DNA from: a bacterium
GTDB taxonomy: Bacteria > Zhuqueibacterota > Zhuqueibacteria > Residuimicrobiales > Krinioviventaceae
Direction of reading: 5' to 3'
NCBI GenBank assembly: GCA_963675755.2
Contig: CAXXMD010000002.1
Span: 192,001 to 256,000 of the forward strand
Length of the DNA: 64,000 nt
Shown here in pieces: positions 2,937 through 40,922 of this stretch (the first letter of the stretch is position 1; every line of letters starts with the position of its first letter). The notes beneath the pieces are model-generated. The model was not told the origin of the DNA. It did no database searches and saw only the letters and a program-made list of their open reading frames with translations. Position numbers and translations under genes: made by a program.

Positions 2937-3050
2937 AAATAAAATTAAAACAGAGGTGGTTTTGTAAAGTTGTTGATTGTTAATACCTCATGGTAAAAAA
3001 AAGTGTGAATCATTTTACTAAATTTACACTTATTGTAAATGGAGGTCCAA

Positions 3051-14655: not shown

Positions 14656-14673
14656 CAAAGAAAGGTGTATATT

Positions 14674-15985: not shown

Positions 15986-17260
15986 TCAATCATGAAGTTT
16001 TACCAGGTCGATATTTGGAGAGATAGGGAATGATGCTATCAGGTTGGTACTGAAACCAATTCGGCTTATTGTGTTTACTTCTAAAGCCAGTTCATAATAT
16101 TCCGGAATGACCCCATGTTTCTCTCTTAATTGAGCTTCAAGTTGTTTAAGAGATTCTTTTTCGGTCAATGCGTTAACAGCTTCGTAAACGCCTGCCAGGT
16201 CCGTACAAGTTATAATCATGATACTATTTTTCTTGTTAGGCCCGGGTAATTTGTTAACCATTACATAATCTTTTCGGGGGCCTGAACCTTGTATACCTTT
16301 GGGAGAAAATGTTTGAACCGAATCCGGTGAATAATTGACAATGAGCTGATGCGGAAAGACTTTATATTGAATATGAAGTTTTGATAATAAGGGATTTAGG
16401 ATTCCCAGTGTTTTTGTTATACCAATAAAAATGATATTATAGTTTTGCAGATCAGAACCGTTTAATTCAGAAGCAAGTTTCATTTCAAAATTGTCATTAT
16501 AGTAGTCAAGAATTGGATATAATGAACGAAACGACCATAAAATTTCTTTTTCAATTATTGCAGGTTTATAGGGTTTGTATGAAATTACAGATGTATCTGC
16601 ATCTATTATTTTGGCATAATTGTTCAAATCTTCTATTGAATTGATTTTACTGTATCTCATAATTTTCATTCCAACAGATTCATGGATATTGTTGGGATTT
16701 TTGGTGCTCTCTATAAAAAAGAATTGATTGCCTACTACAAACAATACAGGCTGATCATTTTTAATAGAATTTTTCCAAATTGGGCTGGAATGAATATATG
16801 ACAAGTCACTGGAATGTCTGGGGTTTGCGTAATTATAATAAATCCATTGAAAAATCAATAATATACTGGGAAGGATAATGAATAGATATTTAATTTTTTT
16901 TGTATCAAAAAAATGAGAGCTGAGATTTTTTTTCTCATTATTTTTTATGAATTTTAACTTGTATCCGCCTTTGGGTATTTCAATTTTTATATCGTCATCT
17001 TTGCCTTCTGACAGATAATAGGTATATAATTTTTTTCTGAGATTATGTGTATGAACTCTTACTATAGAGTCTTCAGCAGGGTTGAAATATGAATTCTTTG
17101 AGAAAACCTCATTTGCAATTGTTGTTTCATTTAGAGGTTCTTTGTTGAATGTGTTTTTATATAAATATAAAAGTAATTTTTTTTCAGTCTTGCATGATTC
17201 AAATTCTTTACTATTTAGAATTTTTTCAATTTGGCTTGAATATATCTGCATGTTGTTCAT
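15986..17260 (-). CDS. Membrane-anchored winged-helix transcriptional regulator with extracytoplasmic domain
   Basis: N-terminal ILNSKEF...ETTIANEVF...DSIVRVHTHNLRKKL...IEIPKGGY wHTH signature, a single TM (about aa 126-143), and a roughly 280-aa C-domain. Confidence 0.75.
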   Translation of the reverse strand: MNNMQIYSSQIEKILNSKEFESCKTEKKLLLYLYKNTFNKEPLNETTIANEVFSKNSYFNPAEDSIVRVHTHNLRKKLYTYYLSEGKDDDIKIEIPKGGYKLKFIKNNEKKNLSSHFFDTKKIKYLFIILPSILLIFQWIYYNYANPRHSSDLSYIHSSPIWKNSIKNDQPVLFVVGNQFFFIESTKNPNNIHESVGMKIMRYSKINSIEDLNNYAKIIDADTSVISYKPYKPAIIEKEILWSFRSLYPILDYYNDNFEMKLASELNGSDLQNYNIIFIGITKTLGILNPLLSKLHIQYKVFPHQLIVNYSPDSVQTFSPKGIQGSGPRKDYVMVNKLPGPNKKNSIMIITCTDLAGVYEAVNALTEKESLKQLEAQLREKHGVIPEYYELALEVNTISRIGFSTNLIASFPISPNIDLVKLHD

Positions 17261-17741
17261 AATCTATTAATTCCTGTACTAGTCATATTTTCAGATGTAA
17301 TGAACAATTACTTGTTTAAAATAGGAGTATAATTATTAAAATGCAATAGTATTGTTAAGGATGTTAAAAACATAAATTAACAGTTATTATCTGGAAATTT
17401 GGGCTAATTATTAATACCATACAATATGTAATTTTTTGTGTTTATCTGGTCCTTTAAAATGATACTAAATCATTGTAAGAATAATGAAAAGTTGAAAATA
17501 CATACTCTAAAAAGAGACAATTTTATTAAATTTTGAATGATTGCATATAAATAATTTAACAGTTCTTTTTACTTTGATCTTTCAATTAATTTCCTGCTGC
17601 AAATTATAATCTTGAAATTGTATTTTGCACCATGACTCACGATTAACTCACCGAATGTGAATGTACTATTGGTAGCGCTGTAATCCATTGCAATTAATTA
17701 GGATTATTTATTGATCAAAAAAATACAGGTTTAGGGAAGAC

Positions 17742-19511
17742 ATGACACTCGGAGTTTGGGATTATACAATACTAATTGGATATTTTACGATTGCTCTTGT
17801 TTTGGTAACAGTCTATTTTAGACGTGCAAGCAAGGGTATAGATGAATATTTTGCTGCGGGTCGTTCTTTACCTTGGTGGCTTTTGGGCACTTCTATGGTT
17901 GCCACTACCTTTAGTACTGACACCCCCAATCTTGTTGCAAATGTGGTTCGTGAAAATGGAGTGTCTGGTAATTGGGTGTGGTGGTCTTTTCTCTTTACTG
18001 GAATGATGACTGTGTTTTTTTATGCACGACTGTGGCGACGCTCTGGAGTACTTACCGATCTCGAGTTTTATGAATTACGTTATTCAGGTAAATCTGCAAC
18101 TTTTGTTAGGGGTTTTAGAGCTTTATACCTGGGATTCTTTTTTAATACAGTCATTATGGCTACGGTAACCTTGTCTGCTGTCAAAATTGCCAATATTCTA
18201 TTTGGCTGGTCCAGAATTGAGACGGTTATTATTTGCTCACTGGGCGCAGTTGCTTTTTCCGTAACATCCGGTTTGTGGGGGGTGGTTGTAACTGATTTAC
18301 TATTGTTCATAATGGCAATGGTTGGGTCCATTTCTGCTGCCTGGTTTTCATTACAACACCCAAGTGTTGGCGGATTGCATGGACTTGTTGAAAAGATCGA
18401 TCCTCAAACTCTTAACCTGTTACCGGATTTTTCGAATTTAGAATCGGCTCTTGCAATATTTATAATTCCATTGGCAGTGCAATGGTGGTCTGTTTGGTAT
18501 CCCGGTGCTGAACCCGGGGGCGGCAGTTATATTGCACAAAGGATGTTGGCTGCTAAAAATGAACGTCACTCTATGGGTGCAACACTCTGGTTTAATATTG
18601 CACATTATGGTCTAAGACCCTGGCCCTGGATTATTGTAGGATTATGCTCAATTCTGGTTTATCCCTCACTTGCTGATATTCAGCAGGTTTTTCCCCATGT
18701 CAGCCCCAATCTTGTAGGACATGATATTGCCTACCCGGCAATGCTGGTGTTTTTACCGGAAGGATTCAGAGGTGTAATGGTAGCTTCGTTGATTGCTGCA
18801 TACCTGTCTACTATGGATACAAGTTTGAATTGGGGTGCTTCTTATATAGTACATGATTTTTATAGACGATTTTTTAAACCCCAGGCCAGTCAACGTCATT
18901 ATATTATGGTCTCCCGAATGAGTACTTTGTTATTGATGGTTTTTGCTGCCATGATTGTATTTGTACTGGATACCGCCAAAAACAGCTTTGATCTATTATT
19001 GTCCATTGGAGCAGGTACCGGCCTGATTTATCTGCTGCGCTGGTTCTGGTGGCGCATCAATGCATGGAGTGAAATTGCTGCAATGATCAGTTCATTTGTT
19101 ATTGCATTTGCTCTGTTTTTTGCAAAACGTGCAGGATTAGAATTATCTACCCATTTTACTCTGATCATTAGCGTTGCAGCAACCACACTTGTCTGGATGC
19201 TTGTAACTTTTTTAACAAAGCCTGCTGATATTAAGGTTTTGGAAACTTTTTACAACCTGGTTCGTCCTGCGGGAAGAGGATGGAAACCAATACAAACTCG
19301 TCTTCAACTTGAACCATCTCATGATAGTGTAACTCATAGCATATTGGGTTGGATTCTGGGCTGCGTTTTTGTTTATTCTGCTCTGTTTTTAATGGGATAT
19401 GTACTTTATGGACAATATGTTTCTGCTATTATTTGCCTGTTACCATTTATAATCAGTTCAATTGGTTTAATTAAAATATTAGGCAAAATGTTTAGTACCA
19501 AATATAACTAA
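17742..19511 (+). CDS. Sodium:solute symporter (SSS) family transporter
   Basis: YFAAGRSLPWW, SMVATTF and YIAQRMLAAK motifs; many TM helices. Confidence 0.95.
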   Translation: MTLGVWDYTILIGYFTIALVLVTVYFRRASKGIDEYFAAGRSLPWWLLGTSMVATTFSTDTPNLVANVVRENGVSGNWVWWSFLFTGMMTVFFYARLWRRSGVLTDLEFYELRYSGKSATFVRGFRALYLGFFFNTVIMATVTLSAVKIANILFGWSRIETVIICSLGAVAFSVTSGLWGVVVTDLLLFIMAMVGSISAAWFSLQHPSVGGLHGLVEKIDPQTLNLLPDFSNLESALAIFIIPLAVQWWSVWYPGAEPGGGSYIAQRMLAAKNERHSMGATLWFNIAHYGLRPWPWIIVGLCSILVYPSLADIQQVFPHVSPNLVGHDIAYPAMLVFLPEGFRGVMVASLIAAYLSTMDTSLNWGASYIVHDFYRRFFKPQASQRHYIMVSRMSTLLLMVFAAMIVFVLDTAKNSFDLLLSIGAGTGLIYLLRWFWWRINAWSEIAAMISSFVIAFALFFAKRAGLELSTHFTLIISVAATTLVWMLVTFLTKPADIKVLETFYNLVRPAGRGWKPIQTRLQLEPSHDSVTHSILGWILGCVFVYSALFLMGYVLYGQYVSAIICLLPFIISSIGLIKILGKMFSTKYN

Positions 19512-19520
19512 ACAACGGGT

Positions 19521-20585
19521 GTGCTTTTGAATTCAAAAGATCGTATACTGAATGCCATTGAGCATAAAACAACGGATAGAATTCCTATAACTTTTGATGC
19601 TGAAATAGAAGTGTATGATGCTCTATACAAGCATCTTTTAATTTCTAATAAAGAGCAATTGTTCGACCGCCTGAATGTAGATACCTGGATGGTATTACCA
19701 AAGAATTTCATTTATCCGGACATTGAACTGGATAATGGATTCAAAACTTCGATTTGGGGATACAAAACCCAATATAAAAATTATTCAGGGGGGGCGTATG
19801 ACGAGTTGTATTACAGTCCTCTTGCCGGTAAAAATGATATTGATGATATAAAAAAACATACCTGGCCCAACGAAAATACCCAGCAATATGATCATTACCC
19901 TGCCGAGATAGCTGCTCACAAGGATCGTACAATTATAGGTGTGTTTACCTGGGGCGCTTATTTTTTAGCTACTCACGTACGAGGAATGCAAGACCTGATG
20001 ATGGACTTTGCTCTTCGAAGACAGTATATCCAATATCTTTTTGATACAATTGCGGATATCAGTTACAATTACCTGGAGAAAATGTTGAAAAATTATGGGG
20101 ATGGTGTTGACATTGTCTATATGGCGGATGATTACTGTTCCCAACAGGGTCCATTTTTTAGTCCTGATGATTTTAAAACGTTTATAGTGCCTTATCTCAA
20201 AAGATATGTCTCACTTGTCCATAAATATAACAAGAAATTTCTGCTGCATGTATGTGGTGCAGTAAGACCTCTTTTGCCTATGATTATTGATTGCGGAGTG
20301 GACATGCTTGAACCGATCCAGACGCGTGCTGCTGGTATGGAGCCGGAGGGATTGAAAAGAGATTTTGGCAACGACATTGCTTTTTATGGTGGTATGGACC
20401 TGCAGCAGACACTGCGCCTGGGCTCTGTTGATGATGTAAAGAATGAAACAAAATATTTGATTGATACGCTGGGTAAAGACGGCGGGTATGTTTTTGGTCC
20501 TGGGCATACCTATATTCAAATTGATGCACCCATTGAAAATATAATTGCAATGTATGATACAGCTATGCAATATTATCCATTTTAA
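19521..20585 (+). CDS. Uroporphyrinogen decarboxylase / MtaA-CmuA methyltransferase superfamily protein
   Basis: KDRILNAIEHKTTDRIP, RGMQ, ADDY, LHVCG, FYGGMD and GGYVFGPGH motifs; GTG start. Confidence 0.85.
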   Translation: MLLNSKDRILNAIEHKTTDRIPITFDAEIEVYDALYKHLLISNKEQLFDRLNVDTWMVLPKNFIYPDIELDNGFKTSIWGYKTQYKNYSGGAYDELYYSPLAGKNDIDDIKKHTWPNENTQQYDHYPAEIAAHKDRTIIGVFTWGAYFLATHVRGMQDLMMDFALRRQYIQYLFDTIADISYNYLEKMLKNYGDGVDIVYMADDYCSQQGPFFSPDDFKTFIVPYLKRYVSLVHKYNKKFLLHVCGAVRPLLPMIIDCGVDMLEPIQTRAAGMEPEGLKRDFGNDIAFYGGMDLQQTLRLGSVDDVKNETKYLIDTLGKDGGYVFGPGHTYIQIDAPIENIIAMYDTAMQYYPF

Positions 20586-20597
20586 TGTGAGGTTGAT

Positions 20598-21377
20598 ATG
20601 GCAAAAATCTATTACGTAGGGGACTGGGCAGTAATGACGGGGCCGGTTTTCGCTGAAACCCCATTTAACTATGCTTATAAGGGACTTGATATTTTTAATT
20701 ACGGCAAGTGGTTAAAAGAGGGCTTGGAAAAAGACGGCAAGCATGATGTCACGTCGGTACCCACCTGGGAGTTTTATAAACTGGCACCAGGTGAATATGA
20801 AAAAATTCTGGATGAATATGATGTTATCATTTTTAGTGATGTTGAAGCTAAAAATTTTCAACTTGCTCCTGCTTTTTTTGATCGCAAGAAATTTGGTACA
20901 CAGGTTTTGACTTTTCCGGATCGTATTCGTTTAACAATTGATGCGGTAAATAATGGAAAGGGTATTTTATTTTTAGGCGGATGGTTATCCTTCACAGGTG
21001 AAATGGGCAAAGGAGGATGGAACCGCACACGTTTAAAAGAAATGCTGCCAGTGCAATGTCTGGATTATGAAGACCTGGTTGAGAGTACTGAAGGATTTAC
21101 AGCAAAATTGTCAACATCAGGGTTGCTTTCTTTTGGAACTATTGATATAGATTCGTTTCCACCTATACTTGGATATAATAAAACTTTGCCTATTGATGAA
21201 GGTGACGTACTGTTGACTGTTAAAGAAACCGGTGATCCTTTGGTGGCGTTTCGGAAATTTGGTGAAGGCAGAGTACTTGCGTATATGTCTGATCCTGCCC
21301 CGCATTGGGGTTGCAATTTTATCTTTTGGGAGCATTATGCCAAATTCTGGTCTGTTTGCATTGAACAGGTTCTTTAG
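20598..21377 (+). CDS. Class I glutamine-amidotransferase-like protein (DUF1355/GATase1_like)
   Basis: YDVIIFSD, FLGGWLSF.G, LPV, LGYN and GEGRVLAYMSDPAPHWG motifs. Confidence 0.8.
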   Translation: MAKIYYVGDWAVMTGPVFAETPFNYAYKGLDIFNYGKWLKEGLEKDGKHDVTSVPTWEFYKLAPGEYEKILDEYDVIIFSDVEAKNFQLAPAFFDRKKFGTQVLTFPDRIRLTIDAVNNGKGILFLGGWLSFTGEMGKGGWNRTRLKEMLPVQCLDYEDLVESTEGFTAKLSTSGLLSFGTIDIDSFPPILGYNKTLPIDEGDVLLTVKETGDPLVAFRKFGEGRVLAYMSDPAPHWGCNFIFWEHYAKFWSVCIEQVL

Positions 21378-21426
21378 GTTTTAGCTGAATGTCTGGAATA
21401 TCAATAAAACAGGAATTGATTAAATA

Positions 21427-22668
21427 ATGAAATCCGTTTTGAAAAAGATTGGGATATTTTTTGCGTCTATTGCACCTGGTGTGTTTTTGCTGGGTTATAA
21501 TATTGGAACGGGGAGTGTGACTACAGCGGCATCTACAGGTGCGTTATACGGAATGATGTTTGTCTGGCCGTTTTTATTGTCTTGTATTTTTACCTATGTC
21601 CTGATACTGGCATTTGGTCGTTATACGGTAGTAACAGGCAAGACTGCACTGTTTAGTTTCCGTGAGTATTTCGGGACGCCAATTTCAGTATTTGTGCTGA
21701 TAGCGGTTGTGTTTAGTGAATGGGTTGCGTTTATGGGAGTAATGGGCGTAGTTACTGAAGTGGTTAAAGAATGGTCGCGTCCGCTAACTCCCTCGGGAAA
21801 TGGAATTAAAATGATTTGGTCTACTCTGCTATTTGGTGGATTAATATATTTTCTGTTTTGGAAAGGAAAGCACCGTTTCTTTGAGAAAATCTTGCTTGTT
21901 TTTGTAACGCTGATGGGAATCAGTTTTATTGCAACGATGTTTATGGTTATCCCGGATCCTATGCAGGTTATTAAGGGGCTTGTGCCCAGGATACCACATG
22001 AGTCCAATGCTGCATTGCTTATTGCGGGTATGGTGGGTACTACTATGGGGGGGGTGCTTTACTTGGTCCGTTCCATCCTGGTGCAGGAAAAAGGCTGGAA
22101 AATTAGTGATCTGAAAATAGAAAAACGCGATGCTTTTATTAGCGCTACACTCATGTTTGTTCTCAGTGCAGCTATAATGGCCTGTGCTGCAGGCACTCTT
22201 TATCCGCTCGGTTTAAAAGTGGATAATGCCATTGATATGGTCAAGCTGCTTGAACCATTGGCGGGACGTTTTGCCATATCGATATTTGTAGCTGGCATTG
22301 TCAGTGCGGGTTTATCTTCATTGTTTCCTCATATATTGCTTGCACCCTGGTTTCTTGCCGATTTTACCGGCCAGCCTCGTGATATGACCTTGACCAAAAA
22401 TCGTCTCATTGCTCTTTTTACTGTAAGCCTTGGATTTGTAGTACCTGTTTTTGGTGGACGGCCGGTTATGGTGATGATCATTTCTCAGGCTTTTGCTGCT
22501 ATTGTAACTCCCGTGATTATAATTTTAATGTTGATCCTGTTAAACCGTTCATCACTAATGGGAGAGTACAAGATAAAACCCATGTTAAATTTTGTTTTGA
22601 TTGTGATTTTTATTTTTACAGTTTTTATGGCGATCACTGGCATTGTCGGTATTCGTGGATTGTTTTGA
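21427..22668 (+). CDS. NRAMP-family (YcsG-like) membrane transporter
   Basis: APG...NIGTGS, GMVGTT and about 11 TM helices; lacks the canonical DPGN motif. Confidence 0.8.
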   Translation: MKSVLKKIGIFFASIAPGVFLLGYNIGTGSVTTAASTGALYGMMFVWPFLLSCIFTYVLILAFGRYTVVTGKTALFSFREYFGTPISVFVLIAVVFSEWVAFMGVMGVVTEVVKEWSRPLTPSGNGIKMIWSTLLFGGLIYFLFWKGKHRFFEKILLVFVTLMGISFIATMFMVIPDPMQVIKGLVPRIPHESNAALLIAGMVGTTMGGVLYLVRSILVQEKGWKISDLKIEKRDAFISATLMFVLSAAIMACAAGTLYPLGLKVDNAIDMVKLLEPLAGRFAISIFVAGIVSAGLSSLFPHILLAPWFLADFTGQPRDMTLTKNRLIALFTVSLGFVVPVFGGRPVMVMIISQAFAAIVTPVIIILMLILLNRSSLMGEYKIKPMLNFVLIVIFIFTVFMAITGIVGIRGLF

Positions 22669-22687
22669 AAAAAGGAGAATTGAAATT

Positions 22688-23593
22688 ATGTTTTCATCAT
22701 CTATTGTTTGTTGTTATTTGCACCCAATAACTAAATATGGCTATCCTCCCAAAGCTGAAAATACAGTAAACTATTTAGAGGAAATGCATGAAATGGGTTT
22801 CCGTTCTGTAGAACTGGAAGGTATTCGCGAAAAACATTTAATGGGTGTTTATGAGGACCGTGAAAATATATTGAAAAAAATTGACGAGCTGAATTTGAAT
22901 ATCCCTTATTTCTGTATTGTACTGCCGGGTTTGTCATCTCCGGATGAAAAGGAACGTATACGTAATCTTGAGTTGTTTGAAAAGGGATGCGAGATAGCTC
23001 AATTTTTTGGAACAAAGGGAGTACTGGATAATGCGCCATTACCTCCATATCAGTTTCCAACAGATATTCCGGTTGTAAGGCATTATGGAAAAGAGGCATT
23101 GTCGCAGGCATTTTTACCGGAAAATTTAAATTGGGACCATTACTGGAACGATATGGTCCTGACGTATAGAGAAGCTTGTGATATTGCAGCAAAATATGAA
23201 CAGACTTTTCAAATGCATCCATGTTTGGGGGTTTTTGCTTCAAATACAGACGGATTTTTGAATTTGCATGCAGCAGTTCAGCGAGACAATTTACGATTTA
23301 ATCTGGATACTGCAAATCAGTTCATGCAGCATGATAATTTGGTTTTATCTGTGTATCGGACGAGAGAGTATCTTGACTATATACATATTTCGGATAACCG
23401 TGGGACAAATGTTGAGCATCTTGTTCCCGGCAATGGTAACATCCCCTGGGATACTTTTTTTGAAGCCCTGGACCAATGCAGCTTCAAGGGGCACCTGGGT
23501 ATCGATGTAGGTGGTGATGAATCAGATGTTGATGATATAGATAAAGCATTTATTCAAACAGCAAAATGGTTGGAGAAAAAATGGAAAAAGTAA
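22688..23593 (+). CDS. Sugar phosphate isomerase/epimerase (AP-endonuclease-2 TIM barrel)
   Basis: GFRSVEL, NLDTAN, IHISDN and HLVPG.G.IPW motifs; AAGGAG RBS before ATG 22688. Confidence 0.85.
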   Translation: MFSSSIVCCYLHPITKYGYPPKAENTVNYLEEMHEMGFRSVELEGIREKHLMGVYEDRENILKKIDELNLNIPYFCIVLPGLSSPDEKERIRNLELFEKGCEIAQFFGTKGVLDNAPLPPYQFPTDIPVVRHYGKEALSQAFLPENLNWDHYWNDMVLTYREACDIAAKYEQTFQMHPCLGVFASNTDGFLNLHAAVQRDNLRFNLDTANQFMQHDNLVLSVYRTREYLDYIHISDNRGTNVEHLVPGNGNIPWDTFFEALDQCSFKGHLGIDVGGDESDVDDIDKAFIQTAKWLEKKWKK

Positions 23594-25233
23594 AATCACT
23601 AAAAGATTGTGCTTTTACAGGAGTGTTGGTCCTGGTTTTAATTACTCTGTTTATCCCAAGTTTAAAAGTTGTAAACGCTTCCCCATTATCTCAAGGTCTT
23701 ATTTATAATGTTCGGGATTATGGCGCGAAGGGTGATTCTGTCACTCTCGATACAAAATCTATTCAAGCAGCTATTGATGATTGTTCAAAACAGGGAGGTG
23801 GTACCGTATTGCTTCCTGCGGGGACATATTTGAGTGGTACATTACATTTAAAAAGCTATATTACACTCCATATTCAGAGCGGGGCTGTATTGCTTGGAAG
23901 TACCCGGATTGATGATTATACTCTCAATTCTCCCGAGTTGGTATCCTACAATGACAGCTTTTTGAAACAGAGCCTCATATACGGGGAAAATCTCGATCAT
24001 ATCAGTATTGAAGGAGATGGGATTATTGACGGACAGGGAGGTGCATTCAAGGTAACCACCAAAGTAAAACCTGATCGTTACAAAAACAGACCTTTTATAC
24101 TTCGTCTGATTCATTGCCGTAACGTTAGGGTAGAAAACATAACTCTGCAAAATTCCGCCATGTGGATGCAGCACTATCTTGCCTGTGAAAATCTGATTAT
24201 TCGAGGTATTAAAGTTTATAATCATTGTAATCAAAATAATGACATGATGGATATTGACGGTTGTAAAAATGTTGTGATTTCTGATTGTATCGGTGATACC
24301 GATGATGATGGATTAACTTTAAAAAGTACTTCCGGGCAGATTACAGAAAATGTCACAATAACCAATTGTATTCTCAGTAGTCATTGCAATGCGCTAAAAT
24401 GTGGTACGGAATCGCATGGCGGATTTAAAAATATTGTTATATCCAATATACTTGTTAAACCCTCTAAAGACGATACAGCCATTTTTGGTGATCCGAAAGG
24501 TATTGGGGGGATTGTTTTGGCTATTGTAGATGGCGGTCTGCTTGATAATGTGAATATCAGTAATGTTCGCATTGAAGGTACGCGGGTACCGCTTTTTCTG
24601 CGTCTGGGCAACCGCGCACGAACTGTTGTGCCGGGTGATATACCGCCAGGTGTAGGAACCTATGAGAATGTAAAAATATCTCATGTTACTGCTACCGGAG
24701 CGGACAGTATCGGGTGTTCTATCACCGGTCTGCCGGGACATCCGGTCAGGAATGTTGAATTGAGCGATATTACCATCTCTTTTCGCGGTGGTGTGGTTGA
24801 CCCGCAACGGCTTGCGAATGTACCGGAAAATGAAACATTTTATCCTGAAAGCACAATGTTTGGTACTTTGCCCGCGTATGGATTTTATCTTCGTCATGCT
24901 GTGAATATTAGTCTAAGTGATATTGATCTGTCTTGTAAACAACCGGATGAACGACCGGCTTTACTGGCTGATGATGTAAAAGAACTGGATATTGACAATT
25001 TAAAAGCAATGGGTAGTGAAAACGCGGAACCTTTGATCTCGCTAATCAATACATCAAATGTTTATTTAACCGATTCACGAGCTAGCAATAGTGCGAATGG
25101 TTTTGTAAGCATTAGCGGAGAATATACCGGTCCTGTTTTTATGTATAATAACAAAATGAGTAACACACGAATACCTATAATGATAAATGATAATGTTCCG
25201 GGAGATGTCATAAAATGTCTAGATTCATATTAA
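23581..25233 (+). CDS. Glycoside hydrolase family 28-like protein
   Basis: YNVRDYGAKGD, GGGTVLLPAG, NNDMMD, DDDGL, CNALKCGTES and YPE..MFG.LPAYG motifs; signal peptide. Confidence 0.85.
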   Translation: MEKVKSLKDCAFTGVLVLVLITLFIPSLKVVNASPLSQGLIYNVRDYGAKGDSVTLDTKSIQAAIDDCSKQGGGTVLLPAGTYLSGTLHLKSYITLHIQSGAVLLGSTRIDDYTLNSPELVSYNDSFLKQSLIYGENLDHISIEGDGIIDGQGGAFKVTTKVKPDRYKNRPFILRLIHCRNVRVENITLQNSAMWMQHYLACENLIIRGIKVYNHCNQNNDMMDIDGCKNVVISDCIGDTDDDGLTLKSTSGQITENVTITNCILSSHCNALKCGTESHGGFKNIVISNILVKPSKDDTAIFGDPKGIGGIVLAIVDGGLLDNVNISNVRIEGTRVPLFLRLGNRARTVVPGDIPPGVGTYENVKISHVTATGADSIGCSITGLPGHPVRNVELSDITISFRGGVVDPQRLANVPENETFYPESTMFGTLPAYGFYLRHAVNISLSDIDLSCKQPDERPALLADDVKELDIDNLKAMGSENAEPLISLINTSNVYLTDSRASNSANGFVSISGEYTGPVFMYNNKMSNTRIPIMINDNVPGDVIKCLDSY

Positions 25234-27776
25234 TATCACTATTAACTCTATTCAGTGTTCAGGCAGGATTTTCAGCAAAAACGCAATTGAATATAGTCCC
25301 TTATCCGCAAGTGATTGATTTTCAATCCGGCACGCTTGAATTGAATAATGGACCTGTTGATATTAATTTAGGAACGAAAAAAGGTGTTGATCTGGAATTT
25401 GAAGTTCAACAAGCCAAGCAAGCGTTTGCATCAACTAATCCTGCAGGTAACAAAGAAACTGTACTCTGGATGGGATTGTTTGGAGAACACAAGCAATTTG
25501 ATGAGCTTTGCAAAAAACATGGTATCACTCGGGATGAGCGTATCGGCAACGAAGGCTATGTTCTGCTAATCAACAAAGATTTGATTGCCATTGCGGCAAA
25601 TTCATCAGCAGGAATCTTTTATGGGATCCAGACTCTCAAGCAGATAATAATGGATAAGGAAAATGAAAACGAATTGCCTTGTGTCAAAATCACTGACTGG
25701 CCGCAGTATCGCTATCGTGGAATGATGGATGATATAAGCCGTGGCCCTGTGCCAACGCTGGCATTTATGAAAAATCAGATCCGGCGTTGTGCAGAGATGA
25801 AAATTAACATGCTCATGTATTATATCGAGCATATTGTAGAGACTGAAAGCCATGGTGATTTTGCTCCGGATGAAGCATCTATTACTATACCGCAGTGGAA
25901 AATGCTGTCAGACTATGCAAAGCAGTATCACATTGACCTGGTAGGCAGCTTTCAGTCCCTTAGCCATGGTGAAAATATCCTCAAACATCCCAATTATAAG
26001 CATCTGGCTGTTACTTATCGTATGTTCAATCCCTTACTTCCCGAGACCTATGATTTTTTTAGAGATGTTTATTCTGAGATGATTCCGGCATTCAACTCTG
26101 ATTTTTTTGCCATCAACTGTGATGAATCATGGGATATTGGTGTGGGAGTAACAAAAGAAACCGTGGACCGGATTGGTCTTGAGCAGTTTTTTGTTGATCA
26201 TGTAACCAAACTGGATAATATAGTAAAACCTTTTAATAAGCGCTCAATTGTATGGGCCGATATTCCGCTTGAACATCCCCAGATTTTGGATATGCTTCCC
26301 AAGGACATAATTCTCGGCGCCTGGGAGTATTCGCCCCTGGAATCTTATGAACGTTATTTAAAACCCCTGTACGATAAAGGATTTGATATTATAATAACTC
26401 CCGGAGTTTTAAATTCTACTCGCTTAATGCCAGATCTGATCATGGCCCACGATAATATTAAATCTTTTATTGAGGCGGGTGTAGATTATAATGCCATGGC
26501 CACTCTGGTAACCGTATGGGATGATGGCGGTATGGCCTTGTTTTCAAGAGATTGGTACGGAGTTGCATATTCTGCCGAAAAGTCATGGAATGTATACGGT
26601 GAAAACCGGGCCCCATTTGATGTTCGCTTTAATAAAACCATTTACGGTATGTCAAACACAGCTCTGACAGATGCGATCAGGGTGATAGAAAAACTTGCAT
26701 ATTTGCCACCCACACAGGAACTGAACGAGAATGTTTTGTGGCAAAAGATTGTTCCTGATTCGGGACGTACATTGTTTTTACGTACTGATTATTGGGACGA
26801 AATTTCGTACATCTGCGATCAAACTGATCAAGCTCTCGAGTTGGCTGATGCCGAACGCTTTGCAGTTGATCTTGATTATTTTGATTTCTCTGTTGCACAG
26901 TATCGTTACCTGGCACAAGCGAGGAAAAGAATGCTGCAAGCGGCACGTGAATATGATAAAGCGTATCTGATTCAGGATAAAGATGTCTTTAAAGCCCGAG
27001 AACACTTGCTGATTGCCAAAGATTGTATTCATAACAATATAGCTCAATTGTCAGAAATAAAAGCAGAATACGAACGACTGTGGCTTATTGAAAACAAAGT
27101 TTGGTGGCTGGATAATGTTTTGACCAGGTATCAGTCAGTATTGGACGCTTATCAGGATGTGCAGCGGCATCTTGTAAACGCGCTTGCAAAACTGGATGTT
27201 AACCAAAGCTTGCCTGTACCCGCAGATTGTCGGCTTGATATCGTTGAATCAAATGGTGATTATTTTCAAGAGTGGATGATAACCGGTCCTTTTGAAAATA
27301 ATGCCGGAGCAAATGGAACGGATGTCGATTTTCTTATTGAAACCGGTGGAATTGAAAATACGGAACCCATTGCGGGTCAAACTTTTCCAGCTCCTGATGG
27401 ACAACCGTACCGGTGGAGTAAATATCATTCACCCGAGTTTGGGGTGATTGATATTACACAAAAAATTGGTTATGCCGAAAACGCTGTTGCATATGCAAAT
27501 TGTCGCATTTATGCTGACAAAGACCAAACAGTGACAGCATCTTTTGCATCTGATGATGGAGTGGATGTTTATTTGAATGGTAAACAGGTCTATTCTAAAC
27601 GAGGTGAAAGAAAATTTTCACCAGATCAGGATAATGTAAAATTACATTTGAATAAAGGCACCAACTATGTAATTCTGAAATTATTTCAGGGTACTGATGA
27701 TTGGAGATTTTCCTTTCAACTTTTAAGCGAAAATGTTAAACATCATAAATACAAATATACATTGCTCAATAATTAG
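25215..27776 (+). CDS. GH20 beta-N-acetylhexosaminidase-like protein with C-terminal PA14-like domain
   Basis: IVPYPQ, EGYVL, DWP...RGMMDDISRG, catalytic-type CDE pair; C-terminal SDDGVDVYLNG. Confidence 0.85.
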   Translation: MSRFILISLLTLFSVQAGFSAKTQLNIVPYPQVIDFQSGTLELNNGPVDINLGTKKGVDLEFEVQQAKQAFASTNPAGNKETVLWMGLFGEHKQFDELCKKHGITRDERIGNEGYVLLINKDLIAIAANSSAGIFYGIQTLKQIIMDKENENELPCVKITDWPQYRYRGMMDDISRGPVPTLAFMKNQIRRCAEMKINMLMYYIEHIVETESHGDFAPDEASITIPQWKMLSDYAKQYHIDLVGSFQSLSHGENILKHPNYKHLAVTYRMFNPLLPETYDFFRDVYSEMIPAFNSDFFAINCDESWDIGVGVTKETVDRIGLEQFFVDHVTKLDNIVKPFNKRSIVWADIPLEHPQILDMLPKDIILGAWEYSPLESYERYLKPLYDKGFDIIITPGVLNSTRLMPDLIMAHDNIKSFIEAGVDYNAMATLVTVWDDGGMALFSRDWYGVAYSAEKSWNVYGENRAPFDVRFNKTIYGMSNTALTDAIRVIEKLAYLPPTQELNENVLWQKIVPDSGRTLFLRTDYWDEISYICDQTDQALELADAERFAVDLDYFDFSVAQYRYLAQARKRMLQAAREYDKAYLIQDKDVFKAREHLLIAKDCIHNNIAQLSEIKAEYERLWLIENKVWWLDNVLTRYQSVLDAYQDVQRHLVNALAKLDVNQSLPVPADCRLDIVESNGDYFQEWMITGPFENNAGANGTDVDFLIETGGIENTEPIAGQTFPAPDGQPYRWSKYHSPEFGVIDITQKIGYAENAVAYANCRIYADKDQTVTASFASDDGVDVYLNGKQVYSKRGERKFSPDQDNVKLHLNKGTNYVILKLFQGTDDWRFSFQLLSENVKHHKYKYTLLNN

Positions 27777-27786
27777 GAGAGAGATT

Positions 27787-29031
27787 ATGAAGACTGTAAA
27801 CCGTGTCACAGCATTGCTATTATTTGTTTTTGTTATAACTGCTTTAGGCCAAAAGGGTGATGAAGAGAAAAAACAGGCAATTATTTCTGCAATTCATGAT
27901 GGTGCAAACTATGCTTGTGATGTATTGCTTGATGAGTCCGGGAAATCACGTTGTGACTATAATTTGTTGCAAGGTAAATGGTTTGTTTACGAGGCACCCT
28001 GGCATACCGGTCAAATTATTTACGGATTGTTGCGTGCACATGATGTGACCAATACCCAAAAATATCTCGATAATGCAAAACGTGCAGGTGACTGGTGGGT
28101 AGGACTCGAGATCAAAGACCACCCTGTATTAAAAGGGATGGTTAACTCTATTCATGGTGATTACATTGAAGACCAGATTGTTTTTGCTACTACATCGGAT
28201 GGAACCGCAGGTTTATTCTATCTTTATAATAAAACAGGTGATGTTAAATATGCGCGTATTCCCACTCAGGCTGGTGCATGGATGCTGGAACACATGTATG
28301 TTCCTTCTCATGGTGTTTTTTATGATGTAGTAGATGCTAAAACCGGCCAGGTTTTAAAAGAAAATAGCCCGTTTTGGGAAGGCAAAGAAGACCAGAAACT
28401 TTATGACGTCTCTCGCCCAAACAATGAAGGGTCTTTGTTCAAGGACATGTATGAATATTCTCATGATGAAAAATATAAAAAAGTTTTTATTGAATTGTGT
28501 GAGAGTCTGGTTAAAAAGCAGGGACCGGAAGGATTATGGATGGATTTTATGCCTAATGATAAGGAATCCGGTTCTTTCCATCCTCGTTTTAATCTCTGGT
28601 ATGCGGAATCTCTGCTTGAAGGTTATGAGTTGACAGGTGATAAACGATATCTGGAAGCCGCTTTAAAAACAGGCAGGCTGTACTCAAAATTTCAACAAGA
28701 TGATGGTACTATTTATTATAAAAACTATCTTGATGGTAAAACAAACCGCAATTCCATTTCCGGTTCTACGGTTGCGTTTGCCGGAATGGTATGGCTGCGA
28801 TTATTAGAGTATGGAGTTGGTGAAGAGTTTAAAGAAAATATAGAGAAATCTTTGGAATGGACACTGATTAATCGTTTTTCAAATGATCATCCGGATAAAA
28901 ATCTGGCAGGTGGTTTTTTCGAAATACGTACACGTCGCAAAGATGGATTGTGGATTACTTTGCGTGACATTGCAACAAGCTTTTCGCTTCGCTTTTTAGC
29001 AGATTATCATGATTACTATTATGCAAAATAG
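27787..29031 (+). CDS. Secreted (alpha/alpha)6-barrel glycosidase/epimerase-like protein (GH88/GH105/AGE-like fold)
   Basis: Repeated helical motifs (KYLDNAKRAGDWW, LYNKTGDVKY, GYELTGDKRYLEAA); AGGAG RBS; signal peptide. Confidence 0.65.
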   Translation: MKTVNRVTALLLFVFVITALGQKGDEEKKQAIISAIHDGANYACDVLLDESGKSRCDYNLLQGKWFVYEAPWHTGQIIYGLLRAHDVTNTQKYLDNAKRAGDWWVGLEIKDHPVLKGMVNSIHGDYIEDQIVFATTSDGTAGLFYLYNKTGDVKYARIPTQAGAWMLEHMYVPSHGVFYDVVDAKTGQVLKENSPFWEGKEDQKLYDVSRPNNEGSLFKDMYEYSHDEKYKKVFIELCESLVKKQGPEGLWMDFMPNDKESGSFHPRFNLWYAESLLEGYELTGDKRYLEAALKTGRLYSKFQQDDGTIYYKNYLDGKTNRNSISGSTVAFAGMVWLRLLEYGVGEEFKENIEKSLEWTLINRFSNDHPDKNLAGGFFEIRTRRKDGLWITLRDIATSFSLRFLADYHDYYYAK

Positions 29032-29079
29032 ATAATGATAAAGTATTATCTGGAATTAATGATTAACAAAGTCATGTCG

Positions 29080-29112
29080 AAAATCCTCTGATTTCCATCA
29101 GGGGATTTTTTC
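29080..29112 (+). terminator. Rho-independent terminator
   Basis: AAAATCCTCTGAT-ttcc-ATCAGGGGATTTT stem running into a T-tract. Confidence 0.75.
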
Positions 29113-29242
29113 ATTCTTTAAGACCTGTCTTGATTTTATTCATATTTCTGATTATCCAACTTGAATACAGAGTGGATTATCATTATATTCCAATAATCAA
29201 GTATAATTTGTAGTATTGTTGTAGTGAATTGAGGACAGAATT

Positions 29243-31669
29243 ATGAATTTCAAATTTCCAGTTATTCTGGTGATTTTATTATCCATTCAATTTTGTTTTG
29301 CTTCTGAACGAATCGTCACAGAACTGAATACGGCAAGGTTCATAAAAGGTGAATCTGCATCTGCCTTTAAATCTGATTTTGATGATTCTGACTGGCGGGT
29401 TGTCAAGCTTCCTCATGATTGGGGGATTGAAGGACCGGTAATTCCTGATGGAGATGGAAATACTGCCAAATTGCCCTGGAAAGGAGAGGCATGGTATCGT
29501 ATTCCTTTGCAAATTCCTCAGAACTATGAAGGTAGACAAATATACCTTTTGTGTGACGGTATTATGGCGTTTCCCCAAATATATGTAAATGGTGAACTGG
29601 CTGGCAAGTGGGATTACGGATACAGTTCGTTTTATGTTGATATAACAAAGTTTTTGCAATATGATAAATCAAACAGCCTGGCAATACATGTGGATACCCG
29701 GAATCACGACAGCCGGTGGTATCCGGGAGCGGGCATCTATCGAAAAATTCAAATGATTGCTGTTGATCCTGTACATGTTGACATTTGGGGTGTTCATATT
29801 TCAACCCCAATCATCAAGCCTCACTATGCAGATGTTCGAATTGCTGCGACTATTAAAAATGATACAAATTCTGAAAAGCATATAGCTGTAAAACATACAA
29901 TTTATGATGCAAATCAAATCAAGATTGCGTCAATTGATACCGTTAAACGTATTAATGCAAATTCCAATATCTTGTCTGAAGTAACAATGACTATTACCGA
30001 TCCTGTTCGTTGGGATGTTGATAATCCTCATCTTTATAAAGTGATTACGGAAATAAGTGATGATGAGCATACTTTAGATACGGTATCCAATACTTTTGGT
30101 GTTCGTTCAATGCGTTTTACTGCCGACAATGGGTTCTATTTGAATGATAAACGCGTTCAGTTCAAGGGAGTGAATTTACATCATGGTCATGGTCCCTTGG
30201 GAACCGTGTTTAACAAACAGGCCATGCAGAGACAGTTGGAGATCATGAAAAATATGGGATGCAATGCCATAAGAACGAGCCATAATATTCCCGCTCCCGA
30301 ATTGTTGGATCTGTGTGATGAAATGGGCCTGCTTGTCTTTGACGAGATCTTTGACAAGTATGATGGCAAAGCAGATATTATGGATACGACGAATTTTGAT
30401 CATTTTGCGCATCGTAATATCCGTAATTTTGTTGTCAGGGACCGTAACCATCCGTCTATTTTTATCTGGAGTGTGGGGAACGAGATAGGTGATGTGCAAA
30501 CCAACTATGATAATGGCTTTTTAAAATTGCAGACCATGATCAGTTATGTGAAAAAATATGACAATTCCCGTCCTACAACCCTGGTTTGTGATCAATTGGA
30601 TAATGCCAAAACGCGTCATTTTGATTACTATGATATTCACAGTTGGAATTATGGCAGGCGTTGGAGGCTTGCCCGTCAGCTTGAACCTAATAAAGCTGTG
30701 ATTATTAGCGAATCTGCATCTACCGTGAGCACACGTGGATTTTACGAGTTCCCCTTGCCTAAAGATAGAACCGCGTTTACCAATTCGCTGCAAATCAGCT
30801 CTTATGATCTTTACGCGCCACGTTGGGCAGAGGTAGCAGATGATGATTTTATGTGGCAGCAGGATGAACCCTATATTGCCGGTGAATTTGTATGGACTGG
30901 ATTCGATTATCTGGGTGAGCCTACACCGTATAGGAACGTATGGGTTAAACAGCAGGGAATGACCGATGAGGATGCTTCACGGAGTTCATATTTTGGTATT
31001 GTGGATTTGTGCGGAATTCCCAAAGATCGTTATTACTTGTACAAGAGTTACTGGAAACCGGATGAAACCACTATACATATTCTTCCACATTGGAACTGGC
31101 CAGACCGGATTGGTAAAACGGTCCCTGTTTTTGTGTATACCAATGGTGATTGTGCTGAACTTTTCTTGAACGGAAAGTCTTTGGGTAAACAGTACAAGAA
31201 ACCCAAATCAGAAAATTCTATTGAACGGTTTCGACTCATGTGGAACGATGTGATTTATCAACCTGGTGAAATAAAAGCAGTGGCCTATAAAGCGGGCCAA
31301 CCGATTGGCGAAAACACTGTTGTAACAACAGGAGAACCCTATCGTTTGCGTTTAACTCCTGATCGAAAGGTTATTCATGCGAATGGACAAGATTTGTCAT
31401 ATGTTTTGATAGAAGCTTTGGATAAAGAGGGCAATTGTCACCCCCTGGCAAATAATCTGATCAAGATTGAGATCAGTGGTAATGGCAAAAATGTAGGTGT
31501 TGGCAATGGCGATCCACAATGTATGAGTGAATTCAAGAGTGATACCATTGAACTGTTTTACGGTAAAGCTATGCTCATTGTGCAATCAGAAAAAGATGCA
31601 GGAAATATTACAGTTAAAGCATCTGCTGAAGGATTAAAAGACGCTGATGTTCGTATTAAAACCGAATAG
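29243..31669 (+). CDS. Glycoside hydrolase family 2 (beta-galactosidase-like, DUF4982-type C-terminus)
   Basis: LPHDW, SRWYPGAGIYR, KGVNLHH, AIRTSHN, RDRNHPSIFIWSVGNE and WTGFDYLGEP motifs. Confidence 0.95.
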   Translation: MNFKFPVILVILLSIQFCFASERIVTELNTARFIKGESASAFKSDFDDSDWRVVKLPHDWGIEGPVIPDGDGNTAKLPWKGEAWYRIPLQIPQNYEGRQIYLLCDGIMAFPQIYVNGELAGKWDYGYSSFYVDITKFLQYDKSNSLAIHVDTRNHDSRWYPGAGIYRKIQMIAVDPVHVDIWGVHISTPIIKPHYADVRIAATIKNDTNSEKHIAVKHTIYDANQIKIASIDTVKRINANSNILSEVTMTITDPVRWDVDNPHLYKVITEISDDEHTLDTVSNTFGVRSMRFTADNGFYLNDKRVQFKGVNLHHGHGPLGTVFNKQAMQRQLEIMKNMGCNAIRTSHNIPAPELLDLCDEMGLLVFDEIFDKYDGKADIMDTTNFDHFAHRNIRNFVVRDRNHPSIFIWSVGNEIGDVQTNYDNGFLKLQTMISYVKKYDNSRPTTLVCDQLDNAKTRHFDYYDIHSWNYGRRWRLARQLEPNKAVIISESASTVSTRGFYEFPLPKDRTAFTNSLQISSYDLYAPRWAEVADDDFMWQQDEPYIAGEFVWTGFDYLGEPTPYRNVWVKQQGMTDEDASRSSYFGIVDLCGIPKDRYYLYKSYWKPDETTIHILPHWNWPDRIGKTVPVFVYTNGDCAELFLNGKSLGKQYKKPKSENSIERFRLMWNDVIYQPGEIKAVAYKAGQPIGENTVVTTGEPYRLRLTPDRKVIHANGQDLSYVLIEALDKEGNCHPLANNLIKIEISGNGKNVGVGNGDPQCMSEFKSDTIELFYGKAMLIVQSEKDAGNITVKASAEGLKDADVRIKTE

Positions 31670-31791
31670 ATGTTAAATTTGAAATGGTGTTTTTAATTAT
31701 TCCTAGAGTCAATTCGTTTGAAATTTTTATGAATTTTTGGAAATATTTTGTATTTTTAAACAGTCAATAAAATATTGAATCGAGGAAGTAA

Positions 31792-32493: not shown

Positions 32494-32517
32494 TTTTAAT
32501 ATACAGGAGTAGTAACA

Positions 32518-34017: not shown

Positions 34018-34023
34018 AAAAAT

Positions 34024-34052
34024 CAAGGGCCTGGTTATTCATCAGGCCCTTG
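34024..34052. terminator. Hairpin between convergent araA and GNAT genes
   Basis: CAAGGGCCTG / CAGGCCCTTG perfect 10-bp stem overlapping the GNAT stop codon; A-tract on the left gives a U-tract on the minus strand. Confidence 0.65.
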
Positions 34053-35627: not shown

Positions 35628-35707
35628 CCCGATTCCTGTTTTGAAATAATGATTTGAATTTATTGAAATCAAGATAGTAAAATTTAGGATAACCTGCCAG
35701 AAGAAAT

Positions 35708-35740
35708 ATCAAGACCGCCAAACGAGTCAGCGGTCTTGAT
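35708..35740 (-). terminator. Terminator after ABC permease operon
   Basis: ATCAAGACCGC / GCGGTCTTGAT perfect 11-bp stem followed by ATTTCTT on the minus strand. Confidence 0.65.
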
Positions 35741-35757
35741 GGGGGAGTTGTGTGTGT

Positions 35758-37224: not shown

Positions 37225-37236
37225 GTCCTCGGAAGT

Positions 37237-39417: not shown

Positions 39418-39420
39418 TAT

Positions 39421-40911: not shown

Positions 40912-40922
40912 TGAGCTTCTCG

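Follow-up and report, generated by a model that had tools for sequence, protein, structure and literature searches.

The stretch of DNA analysed here, referred to as the window, comprises 64,000 nucleotides from a bacterium of the family Krinioviventaceae (assembly GCA_963675755.2, contig CAXXMD010000002.1, positions 192,001 to 256,000) and corresponds to C2:192001-256000 of its own genome, G000, which consists of 6.48 Mb in three contigs (C1 to C3) and is 98% complete. Eight genes on its forward strand, between positions 17742 and 29031, are best explained as one operon within a larger glycan-utilisation island with TonB receptor and type-IX secretion proteins, and their products may import an O-methylated sugar and demethylate it with the help of a corrinoid protein. 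The first gene (17742-19511) encodes a solute:sodium symporter (SSS) of the SGLT type (PF00474 SSF, 101.5 bits), the proposed substrate importer, and the second (19521-20585) a UroD/MtaA-like (beta/alpha)8 enzyme (PF01208 URO-D, 102.3 bits), a candidate zinc- and corrinoid-protein-dependent methyltransferase. They are followed by genes for a cytoplasmic GATase1_like protein, an accessory member (20598-21377; PF07090, formerly DUF1355, 160.5 bits), for an Nramp-fold carrier of the 'orphan' type (21427-22668; PF01566, 202.2 bits) and for a xylose-isomerase-like TIM barrel (22688-23593, longest open reading frame (ORF) from 22643; PF01261 AP_endonuc_2, 99.7 bits). The last three genes encode a glycoside hydrolase family 28 (GH28) enzyme, GH28b (23566-25233; PF00295, 71.7 bits), a GH20-like glycosidase of 853 amino acids with a long C-terminal extension (25215-27776; PF02838, 62 bits, and PF00728, 43.8 bits) and an (alpha/alpha)6-type protein (27733-29031) with a partial match to Glyco_hydro_88 (PF07470, 40.3 bits), all three predicted to be exported. 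The original prediction, made from the sequence of this operon, had named the same families and had divided the products into two transporters, three unassigned enzymes of the cytoplasm and three secreted proteins resembling glycosidases. The Pfam scan of the window, which took in the ORFs between 1080 and 43452, agrees on the families, and the division, with both carriers placed in the inner membrane, is supported as well.

The compact layout described in that prediction, with gaps of at most 50 nt or overlaps and a terminator near 29080, is likewise borne out. The ORF table gives gaps of 9, 12 and 49 nt and overlaps of 19-44 nt at the remaining junctions, which become smaller when later start codons are chosen; for the TIM-barrel gene, M16 (22688) is the most probable start, being the position at which three orthologues begin. 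A terminator-like hairpin on the forward strand (29079-29110), with a 14-pair stem and a T-rich tail, closes the operon 48 nt past the last stop codon and is the best of 22 terminator-like sites in 17000-34500. An AT-rich intergenic region of 480 nt (17261-17741), presumed to hold promoter or regulatory elements, separates the symporter gene from a divergent gene, and the GC content of positions 16001-18000 is 0.308. Promoter-like hexamers are no commoner than in shuffled sequences (62 found, shuffle mean 56.9), and therefore no promoter was assigned upstream of the symporter. The GC content of the operon (0.37-0.40, compared with 0.34-0.44 in the remainder of the window) gives no sign of a foreign island. 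Judged by eye, N-termini resembling a signal peptide are present in the GH28b, GH20-like and (alpha/alpha)6 proteins but not in the UroD-like, GATase1-like and TIM-barrel proteins. Among the three sequencing runs that contain the stretch, all from one study, no RNA run was found.

The full order of eight genes recurs only in a genome of the same genus (G001), at 85-96% protein identity. In G004, from another genus of the same family, the order is an 851-residue exported protein, symporter, UroD-like enzyme, Nramp-like carrier, TIM barrel, GH20-like and (alpha/alpha)6 protein, without the GATase1-like and GH28 genes and with 35-70% identity of the retained ones. A Calditrichia contig (L018) carries symporter, a second UroD-like enzyme, UroD-like enzyme, Nramp-like carrier, TIM barrel and GH28, while in G034 and G036 symporter, UroD-like and Nramp-like genes run to the contig end and the TIM barrel is found on another contig, beside the remaining piece of the Nramp-like gene. 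The conserved core thus consists of four to five genes, for the SGLT-like symporter, the UroD/MtaA-like enzyme, sometimes the GATase1-like protein, the Nramp-like carrier and the TIM barrel. Orthologues of the UroD-like enzyme (E < 1e-150), the Nramp-like carrier (at least 69% identity) and the TIM barrel (E < 1e-130) occur in the same five (G000, G001, G004, G034 and G036) of 41 related genomes, which are not independent samples; the next-best matches are far weaker. This identical, patchy distribution over two families argues for a functional unit.

That the genes share no pathway and lie together by chance in a crowded glycan island is very improbable. The full set is confined to one genus and the contexts of UroD orthologues vary widely, as this explanation would have it, but the three core genes share an identical distribution over 5 of 41 genomes, gene order is kept across two families, the genes are tightly spaced or overlap, and a paralogous UroD-like/Nramp-like pair recurs at C2:2329-2331k of G000. 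The arrangement exceeds chance, its order being kept in G001 and partly in G004. The paralogous pair (374 and 415 amino acids; locus L068, C2:2322001-2338000), by which the pairing recurs in the genome, adjoins an AraC regulator, a glucuronoyl-esterase-like protein of carbohydrate esterase family 15 (CE15) and a GH106 rhamnosidase.

The UroD-like enzyme belongs to the UroD superfamily (PF01208, 102.3 bits against a cut-off of 23.9, profile positions 131-345 matched). Its structure model, with a predicted local distance difference test (pLDDT) of 92.8, aligns with MtaA and UroD structures at template-modelling (TM) scores of 0.63-0.71, and MtaA (4ay7) is the best match in both sequence (E 3.4e-11) and fold (TM 0.70). 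The motif LHVCG aligns with LHICG of MtaA and GPGH with APGC, and residues H243, C245, H329, C206, D203 and D204 are invariant in 26 UroD orthologues. The His-x-Cys pair and the distal Cys of MtaA are presumably its zinc ligands. A role as UroD of the haem pathway (HemE) was considered and rejected: the enzyme scores 25.5 bits against 302.95 for TIGR01464, and a separate HemE is encoded at C3:3304818 (419.2 bits). According to an account of the superfamily (PMC10418091), it includes corrinoid-dependent O-, S- and halogen-demethylases as well as corrinoid-free members, namely UroD itself, MetE and epoxide:CoM transferase.

Orthologues at 54-69% identity are found in metagenome-assembled genomes (MAGs) labelled Planctomycetota, Latescibacterota, Bacteroidales, Kiritimatiellae, Verrucomicrobiota, Acidobacteriota, Lentisphaeria and Anaerolineaceae, where all bear the database name 'uroporphyrinogen decarboxylase (family protein)' or 'hypothetical'. 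Genome and metagenome loci were pooled (n=127, of which 121 are unique, 71 of them with at least 2.5 kb of upstream sequence), and neighbours were counted within 6 kb of the orthologue. A symporter homologue is present at 12 of the 121 loci, directly upstream on the same strand at 10 of them, and a carrier of the major facilitator superfamily (MFS) at 6. Further neighbours are a second UroD-like gene (15/121), a GFO/IDH/MocA (GH109-like) oxidoreductase (11/121), a gluconolactonase-like gene (7/121), the Nramp-like carrier (5/121), the TIM barrel (3/121), the GATase1-like protein (3/121; L017, L083 and L108) and a corrinoid protein (3/121).

These last three loci (L059, L080 and L082) provide the link to corrinoid chemistry. 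The only small corrinoid protein of G000, with 221 amino acids, is encoded outside the operon, at C1:281935-282597. At each of the three loci an ORF of 212-214 amino acids lies directly upstream of the symporter-UroD pair and matches this protein at 42-45% identity; that of L059 contains the Pfam domains B12-binding and B12-binding_2. A tblastn search with the G000 protein against 73 loci and the window returned L059 and a distant Dehalococcoidaceae locus (L067), and a metagenome scan added L080 and L082. A FastTree phylogeny was built from 118 orthologues, the window gene and one outgroup; L058, L059, whose gene is cut, and L061 were excluded because of their insufficient length. Nine of the ten symporter-linked UroD genes fall into one subclade of 15 tips (support 0.94), which includes the window gene and those of L080 and L082. 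The latter two are sister to the G004 gene (support 0.908), whose locus carries the Nramp-TIM part.

The window enzyme and the G000 corrinoid protein are also predicted to form a complex, with a score of 0.82 (runs 0.84, 0.82 and 0.81) compared with 0.00 for the highest-scoring of the three controls; at least 68% of contacts are common to the runs, and the partner has a pLDDT of 79 or more. Of 80 solved complexes, 58 reached the pass mark, as did 2 of 110 mismatched pairs; these counts hold only roughly because own alignments were used. In the modelled interface, the barrel mouth (residues 156-165, 209-217 and 250) would contact the DxHxxG loop (residues 116 and 119) and the cap helix (68-77) of the corrinoid protein. 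The model supports binding without demonstrating it. Demethylation, one of several reactions named in the original prediction, has thus gained support from the corrinoid genes in cis and from the complex model. An operon with symporter-linked, corrinoid-dependent demethylation of an O-methyl sugar is the preferred reading, to which a probability of about 0.42 is assigned.

Several observations weigh against this reading. The complex model could pass through likeness to solved complexes of the family. A corrinoid gene in cis occurs at only 3 of the 121 unique loci, or 3 of the approximately nine symporter-linked loci with enough upstream sequence, and it is present neither in the window nor at the loci of G001, G004, G034 and G036. 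G001, G004, G025 and G034 encode one small corrinoid protein each compared with 11, 41, 37 and 16 URO-D hits, respectively, and G036, at 79% completeness, showed no such protein. In known systems, each methyltransferase I (MT I) has its own corrinoid partner. The RACo-type activase family PF14574 has 0 matches in G000, at its 98% completeness, and Pterin_bind is found there only in a FolP-like (290 amino acids) and a MetH-like (804 amino acids) ORF, neither a dedicated pterin methyltransferase; no activator or methyl acceptor was thus identified. The enzyme itself stays below every NCBIfam cut-off, including those of the MtaA/CmuA models (TIGR01463, 74.1 against 235.4 bits, and NF004889, 78.1 against 244 bits), and has H329 at the third metal-ligand position where MtaA has Cys. 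Symporter and UroD-like genes of G036 are each split into two ORFs, as is the Nramp-like gene of L018. Most of the 121 loci lack a transporter or glycosidase beside the UroD orthologue, some of whose neighbours are housekeeping genes (for ProRS, RNase R and proline dehydrogenase), and the glycosidase set of the operon points to no particular methylated sugar. With neighbours this varied and the full set in one genus, the eight-gene 'pathway' is not a conserved entity, whereas the smaller module is. The combination that the original prediction expected to be conserved therefore holds for the core of four to five genes in 5 of 41 relatives and fails for the complete set, which does not extend beyond the genus; in other phyla, the UroD orthologue lies in quite different contexts.

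Two such contexts recur. Bacteroidales-labelled MAGs (L026, L034, L036, L041, L047 and L139) share genes for an SGNH esterase, an AraA-like protein, an S15 hydrolase, a beta-helix protein and a 642-residue protein upstream on the opposite strand, and for an MFS carrier, a GFO/GH109-like oxidoreductase, a PhyH-like protein, a second UroD-like enzyme and, further on, a creatininase-like protein after the orthologue. In Planctomycetota-type contigs (L033, L038, L102, L107 and L113), the orthologue forms a divergent pair with a gene of the SMP-30/gluconolactonase-like type and with a further UroD-like gene. URO-D hits number 12 in G000, compared with expanded sets of 41 in G004 and 37 in G025, and one G000 paralogue lies between a 3-keto-disaccharide hydrolase and an MFS carrier with a TAT-signal GFO oxidoreductase.

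The scarcity of corrinoid genes would also be accommodated by a corrinoid-free, metal-dependent enzyme of the UroD/MetE fold that acts in some other way on a sugar or sugar acid after import, for example by keto-uronate decarboxylation or thiol-dependent alkyl transfer, alongside oxidoreductase and epimerase chemistry. In accordance with this, 118 of the 121 loci lack a neighbouring corrinoid gene, a single small corrinoid protein faces up to 41 URO-D hits per genome, GFO/IDH/MocA oxidoreductases were called the commonest neighbour (11 of 121 loci), the G000 paralogue beside the 3-keto-disaccharide hydrolase has an MFS carrier and a TAT-signal GFO oxidoreductase next to it, and UroD, MetE and epoxide:CoM transferase are corrinoid-free relatives (PMC10418091). 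Against it stand the in-cis corrinoid genes at three loci of the same subclade, the complex score of 0.82 versus 0.00, the alignment of the HxC motif with MtaA and the low score in the HemE model (25.5 against 302.95 bits), and it is considered rather unlikely.

The counter-evidence would be reconciled with corrinoid-dependent demethylation if a hub of many MT I enzymes worked on one corrinoid protein. In G000, this protein is encoded within another glycan cluster, of the mannosidase type (L074, C1:274001-290000), with the order GFO/IDH/MocA oxidoreductase, GntR/PBP-type sugar-type regulator, URO-D protein, CobW, corrinoid protein, GH92, a protein without assignment and metallophosphoesterase. 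The URO-D protein of this cluster has 453 amino acids, is MtaA-like (MtaA E 4.6e-26) with a thioredoxin-like tail, and could serve as methyltransferase II (MT II). The presence of a corrinoid methyltransferase system in a second glycan cluster of the genome counts in favour of the demethylation reading.

Some hints at the class of the substrate come from the remaining core proteins. The best solved relatives of the symporter are vSGLT (2xq2, E 2.3e-25), SGLT1/2 and SiaT, and its paralogue with 53% identity adjoins a GalK-like kinase and a sulfatase. For the TIM barrel, Foldseek neighbours are D-tagatose/D-psicose 3-epimerases, UlaE and YcjR (TM 0.62-0.69), a weak guide because the model, from a 4-row alignment, has a mean pLDDT of only 66.5; all NCBIfam epimerase models remain far below their cut-offs (PsicseEpim, 27.3 against 300 bits). 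The protein appears closest to metal-dependent ketose 3-epimerases on the basis of this model, which fits the epimerase label given to it earlier. Together, the symporter relatives and these fold neighbours favour a sugar over a phenolic substrate. The relatives of the GATase1-like protein in the PDB, STM1381 (3soz, E 1.7e-32) and 2gk3, are both of unassigned function; this protein and the Nramp-fold carrier belong to the module.

These data bear on the proposal that the module demethylates a compound other than a sugar, for example a phenolic with methoxyl groups, such as ferulate set free from the side chains of pectin or from lignocellulose, or a methylthio compound, and that the glycosidases are mere neighbours. 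The characterised bacterial MT I substrates listed for the UroD superfamily are phenyl methyl ethers, thiols and halomethanes (PMC10418091). Corrinoid protein, symporter and UroD can form a three-gene unit, as at L080, where no ORF of at least 80 amino acids follows the UroD gene (the L082 contig ends 41 nt past it), and esterases of the BD-FAE type occur near some orthologues and in the island upstream of the window. This proposal is nevertheless improbable, as the nearest solved relatives of the carrier are sugar symporters, the co-distributed TIM barrel resembles ketose epimerases and the operon is translationally tight with three glycosidase-like genes. The module is real and uncharacterised, and it is probably dedicated to an O-methyl sugar.

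The second carrier of the operon had been described as an NRAMP-like transporter. It does belong to the Nramp family (202.2 bits in Pfam), and its best PDB match is the Eggerthella Nramp-related magnesium transporter (NRMT; 7qia, E 7.4e-22), with the full-length PF01566 fold. However, Asp55 of 7qia aligns with G27 of the window protein. The sequence of transmembrane helix 1 (TM1) is GTGS in all 120 closest homologues and that of TM6 is MGG in 89 and MGA in 28, whereas the canonical pattern is DPGN in TM1 and MPH in TM6 (PMC10606218). The TM1 aspartate is described as 'universally conserved in all SLC11 proteins' (PMC8806188), and the motifs of the window protein fit the 'orphan' outgroup of PF01566 named in PMC10606218. 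With the metal-binding aspartate missing, the carrier is probably not a metal transporter, and a function as an ordinary Mn/Fe transporter was rejected for lack of the metal-site motifs. G000 has eight Nramp-fold paralogues (window 21427-22668; C1:27228-28430; C2:176090-177202; C2:181561-182688; C2:345486-346619; C2:2329466-2330422; C3:1063746-1064885; C3:2549633-2550631), none of them with canonical DPGN/MPH; TM1 reads GTGS in five and GPGS in three. Where annotated, in G000 and G017, the surroundings of such paralogues are catabolic clusters for sugars or organic acids, with GFO oxidoreductases, amidohydrolases, DHDPS-family proteins, LarA and TIM barrels, as well as a further UroD-like gene that adjoins GH106 and CE15. 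In the island upstream of the window, Nramp-like carriers are the only inner-membrane carriers among the ORFs scanned. The catabolic surroundings and this finding make an organic substrate plausible for these proteins.

The exported proteins and the flanking genes point to the glycan from which the sugar may be released. GH28b belongs to PF00295 and has a hydrophobic N-terminus; its nearest model is the BT4146-type rhamnogalacturonidase NF049898, at 323.9 bits and thus below the cut-off of 500, and its gene is found in G001 and L018 and absent from G004. The GH20-like protein scores above the Pfam cut-offs for both GH20b and GH20 (PF00728 matched at profile positions 1-261 of 348). Its putative catalytic Asp-Glu pair, in the motif NCDES (301-305), is conserved in 5 homologues, and PDB matches are GH20 and GH84 enzymes, mostly across residues 100-205. 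The (alpha/alpha)6 protein, 60% identical in G004, has weak, partial Pfam matches to GH88, GH76, C5-epim_C and GH127, of which PF07470 (40.3 bits) covers profile positions 29-120 of 352 and hence falls short of a full-length GH88/GH105 assignment. A search of the PDB gave no sequence match, and in the protein atlas it lies at 0.98 to clusters auto-named 'pectic acid lyase' or GH127-like. Its family, so far uncharacterised, is related to GH88, to GH127 and to clusters of pectic-lyase-like proteins.

Upstream of the operon, the forward strand encodes a TonB receptor with a CarboxypepD_reg domain (3039-5945), followed by the gene of a protein with a type-IX secretion tail, one of two such proteins in this region. 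Next come a second GH28 enzyme (10553-12049; PF00295, 105.4 bits), the exported 851-residue protein (12100-14655) and an oligogalacturonate-lyase-like beta-propeller protein resembling polysaccharide lyase family 22 (PL22-like; 14665-15813; PF14583, 52.3 bits). The 851-residue protein has no Pfam or PDB hit, matches a 'hypothetical protein' cluster of the protein atlas at 0.97 and is syntenic upstream of the symporter in G004 (45% identity) and G001 (83%). The divergent gene on the reverse strand (15986-17260; 424 amino acids, no Pfam hit) is 90% conserved and syntenic in G001, and its position alone makes it a candidate regulator of the operon. Beyond the terminator, the forward strand carries genes for a GH2 enzyme with Pfam GH2 domains (29243-31669), an AraD-like class II aldolase/epimerase (31792-32493; Aldolase_II, 171.3 bits) and L-arabinose isomerase, AraA (32518-34017; AraA_N, central and C-terminal domains with 282, 231 and 224 bits). 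A SusC/SusD pair was not found, as general Pfam scans of the window ORFs returned no SusD family and no search directed at SusD was made. Judging by these families, with two GH28, PL22-like, GH2, AraA and AraD, the flanks look pectin-like rather than glycosaminoglycan-like. A glycosaminoglycan target was rejected as unsupported by the flanking genes.

A second co-oriented glycan island of 20 kb (L069, C2:172001-192000) lies directly upstream of the window and encodes type-IX secretion proteins (CBM96/F5_F8 and DUF362), two Nramp-like carriers, two GFO oxidoreductases, an amidohydrolase, a NagB-like protein, two BD-FAE-type esterases, an NAD-epimerase, a DHDPS-family protein and a TonB receptor; NagA-like, NagB-like and DHDPS/NanA-family enzymes are among its products. 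Downstream, a reverse-strand run (34923-41684) of genes for a PDZ protein, an NPCBM_assoc-domain protein, an ABC ATPase, two ABC-2 permeases and an outer-membrane beta-barrel has no apparent connection with the operon, and an ORF of 2696 amino acids occupies 49562-57652 on the reverse strand.

The original prediction had placed the substrate among substituted amino or uronic sugars from a glycosaminoglycan or extracellular-polysaccharide-like polymer, to be processed by demethylation, decarboxylation, deacylation and epimerisation. The retained Asp-Glu pair of the GH20-like protein, which suggests a 2-acetamido sugar, the NagA-like, NagB-like and DHDPS/NanA-family enzymes of the upstream island and the action of GH28 on uronides are in line with such a substrate. 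Against it stand the pectin-type flanks (two GH28, PL22-like, GH2, AraD and AraA). No sulfatase or glycosaminoglycan lyase was found among the window ORFs scanned with Pfam, and no sign of a decarboxylase or deacylase was seen, the GATase1_like family having no assigned function. This version of the pathway is quite improbable, and its polymer finds no backing in the flanks.

For symporter-linked demethylation of an O-methyl sugar, the following scheme is proposed. The gene set, its partial conservation, the shared distribution of three core genes, the sequence motifs and the corrinoid genes in cis are observed; all reactions, the class of substrate and the direction in which the methyl group moves are inferred. 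First, an acidic, probably pectin-like heteroglycan would be trimmed by the exported GH28, GH20-like and (alpha/alpha)6 enzymes, and the SGLT-type sodium symporter would import the released sugar still bearing its O-methyl group. The UroD/MtaA-like enzyme, acting as a zinc-dependent methyltransferase, would then hand the methyl group to the corrinoid (B12) protein, encoded in trans in G000 and, in some relatives, putatively supplied by the gene directly upstream of the symporter. Finally, the TIM-barrel enzyme would epimerise or isomerise the demethylated sugar. As the original prediction had stated, no described pathway with this gene set was found in the literature, and full-text searches did not find corrinoid-dependent sugar demethylation either.

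A wider generalisation may be drawn, which is held with some doubt as being on the unlikely side: anaerobic glycan degraders of many phyla would share an oxygen-independent removal of sugar methyl ethers, with substrate-specific UroD-fold methyltransferases, expanded to up to 41 hits per genome, scattered in glycan loci and feeding one shared corrinoid protein, and the window enzyme would be coupled to an importer of the SGLT type and to an 'orphan' Nramp-fold carrier that has lost its metal site, perhaps for an organic solute. Sugars with methyl ethers, which are found in pectins, hemicelluloses, algal galactans and glycans of microbes, are a block to the usual routes of sugar breakdown. If the proposal is true, a B12-dependent route would explain the use of these sugars in anoxic sediments and guts, tie glycan breakdown to methyl-group (C1) metabolism, assign a function to the very large set of genes annotated 'uroporphyrinogen decarboxylase family' and give a first functional lead for the orphan Nramp branch of PF01566. 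The new elements are the in-cis corrinoid genes and the complex model for a symporter-linked UroD-like module.

Among known systems, the pectin loci of Bacteroides thetaiotaomicron for rhamnogalacturonans I and II (RG-I/RG-II) share with the window GH28 enzymes of the BT4146, BT4153 and BT4155 type, GH2 and a TonB-dependent receptor. The window differs in that no equivalog cut-off is reached (323.9 against 500 bits), that its exported proteins bear type-IX secretion tails and that no SusD-like family is among the Pfam hits of the scanned ORFs, no SusD-directed search having been made. To our knowledge, the cytoplasmic module has no counterpart in those loci. The SLC11/Nramp and NRMT magnesium transporters have the full-length PF01566 fold in common with the window carrier, which has Gly in place of Asp, GTGS instead of DPGN and MGG instead of MPH.

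MtaA, the methylcobalamin:coenzyme M methyltransferase (4ay7), is the closest match of the UroD-like enzyme in sequence and fold, with the H-x-C motif aligned, but identity is approximately 20% and the distal ligand position holds His, not Cys. The methyl acceptor of MtaA is coenzyme M, which is not expected in the bacterium of the window. The corrinoid O-demethylases of anaerobes, such as OdmB and VdmB of Acetobacterium dehalogenans, which operate with MT I, corrinoid protein, MT II and activase, resemble the module in their UroD-superfamily barrel, their catabolic setting and a small DxHxxG corrinoid protein, here the predicted partner, which is encoded in the same operon at three related loci. 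Unlike these systems, the module combines an SGLT-type symporter and glycosidases with a corrinoid gene that is usually in trans, and neither activase nor MT II was found in the window's genome. The only sugar demethylase that literature searches turned up is an oxygen-dependent P450 (PMC6292453). This 6-O-methyl-D-galactose demethylase of marine porphyran loci likewise removes a methyl group from a sugar inside a polysaccharide utilisation locus (PMC6292453, PMC9400963, PMC10033563). The P450 is unrelated to the UroD-like enzyme, depends on oxygen and releases formaldehyde, whereas the route proposed for the window would be oxygen-free.

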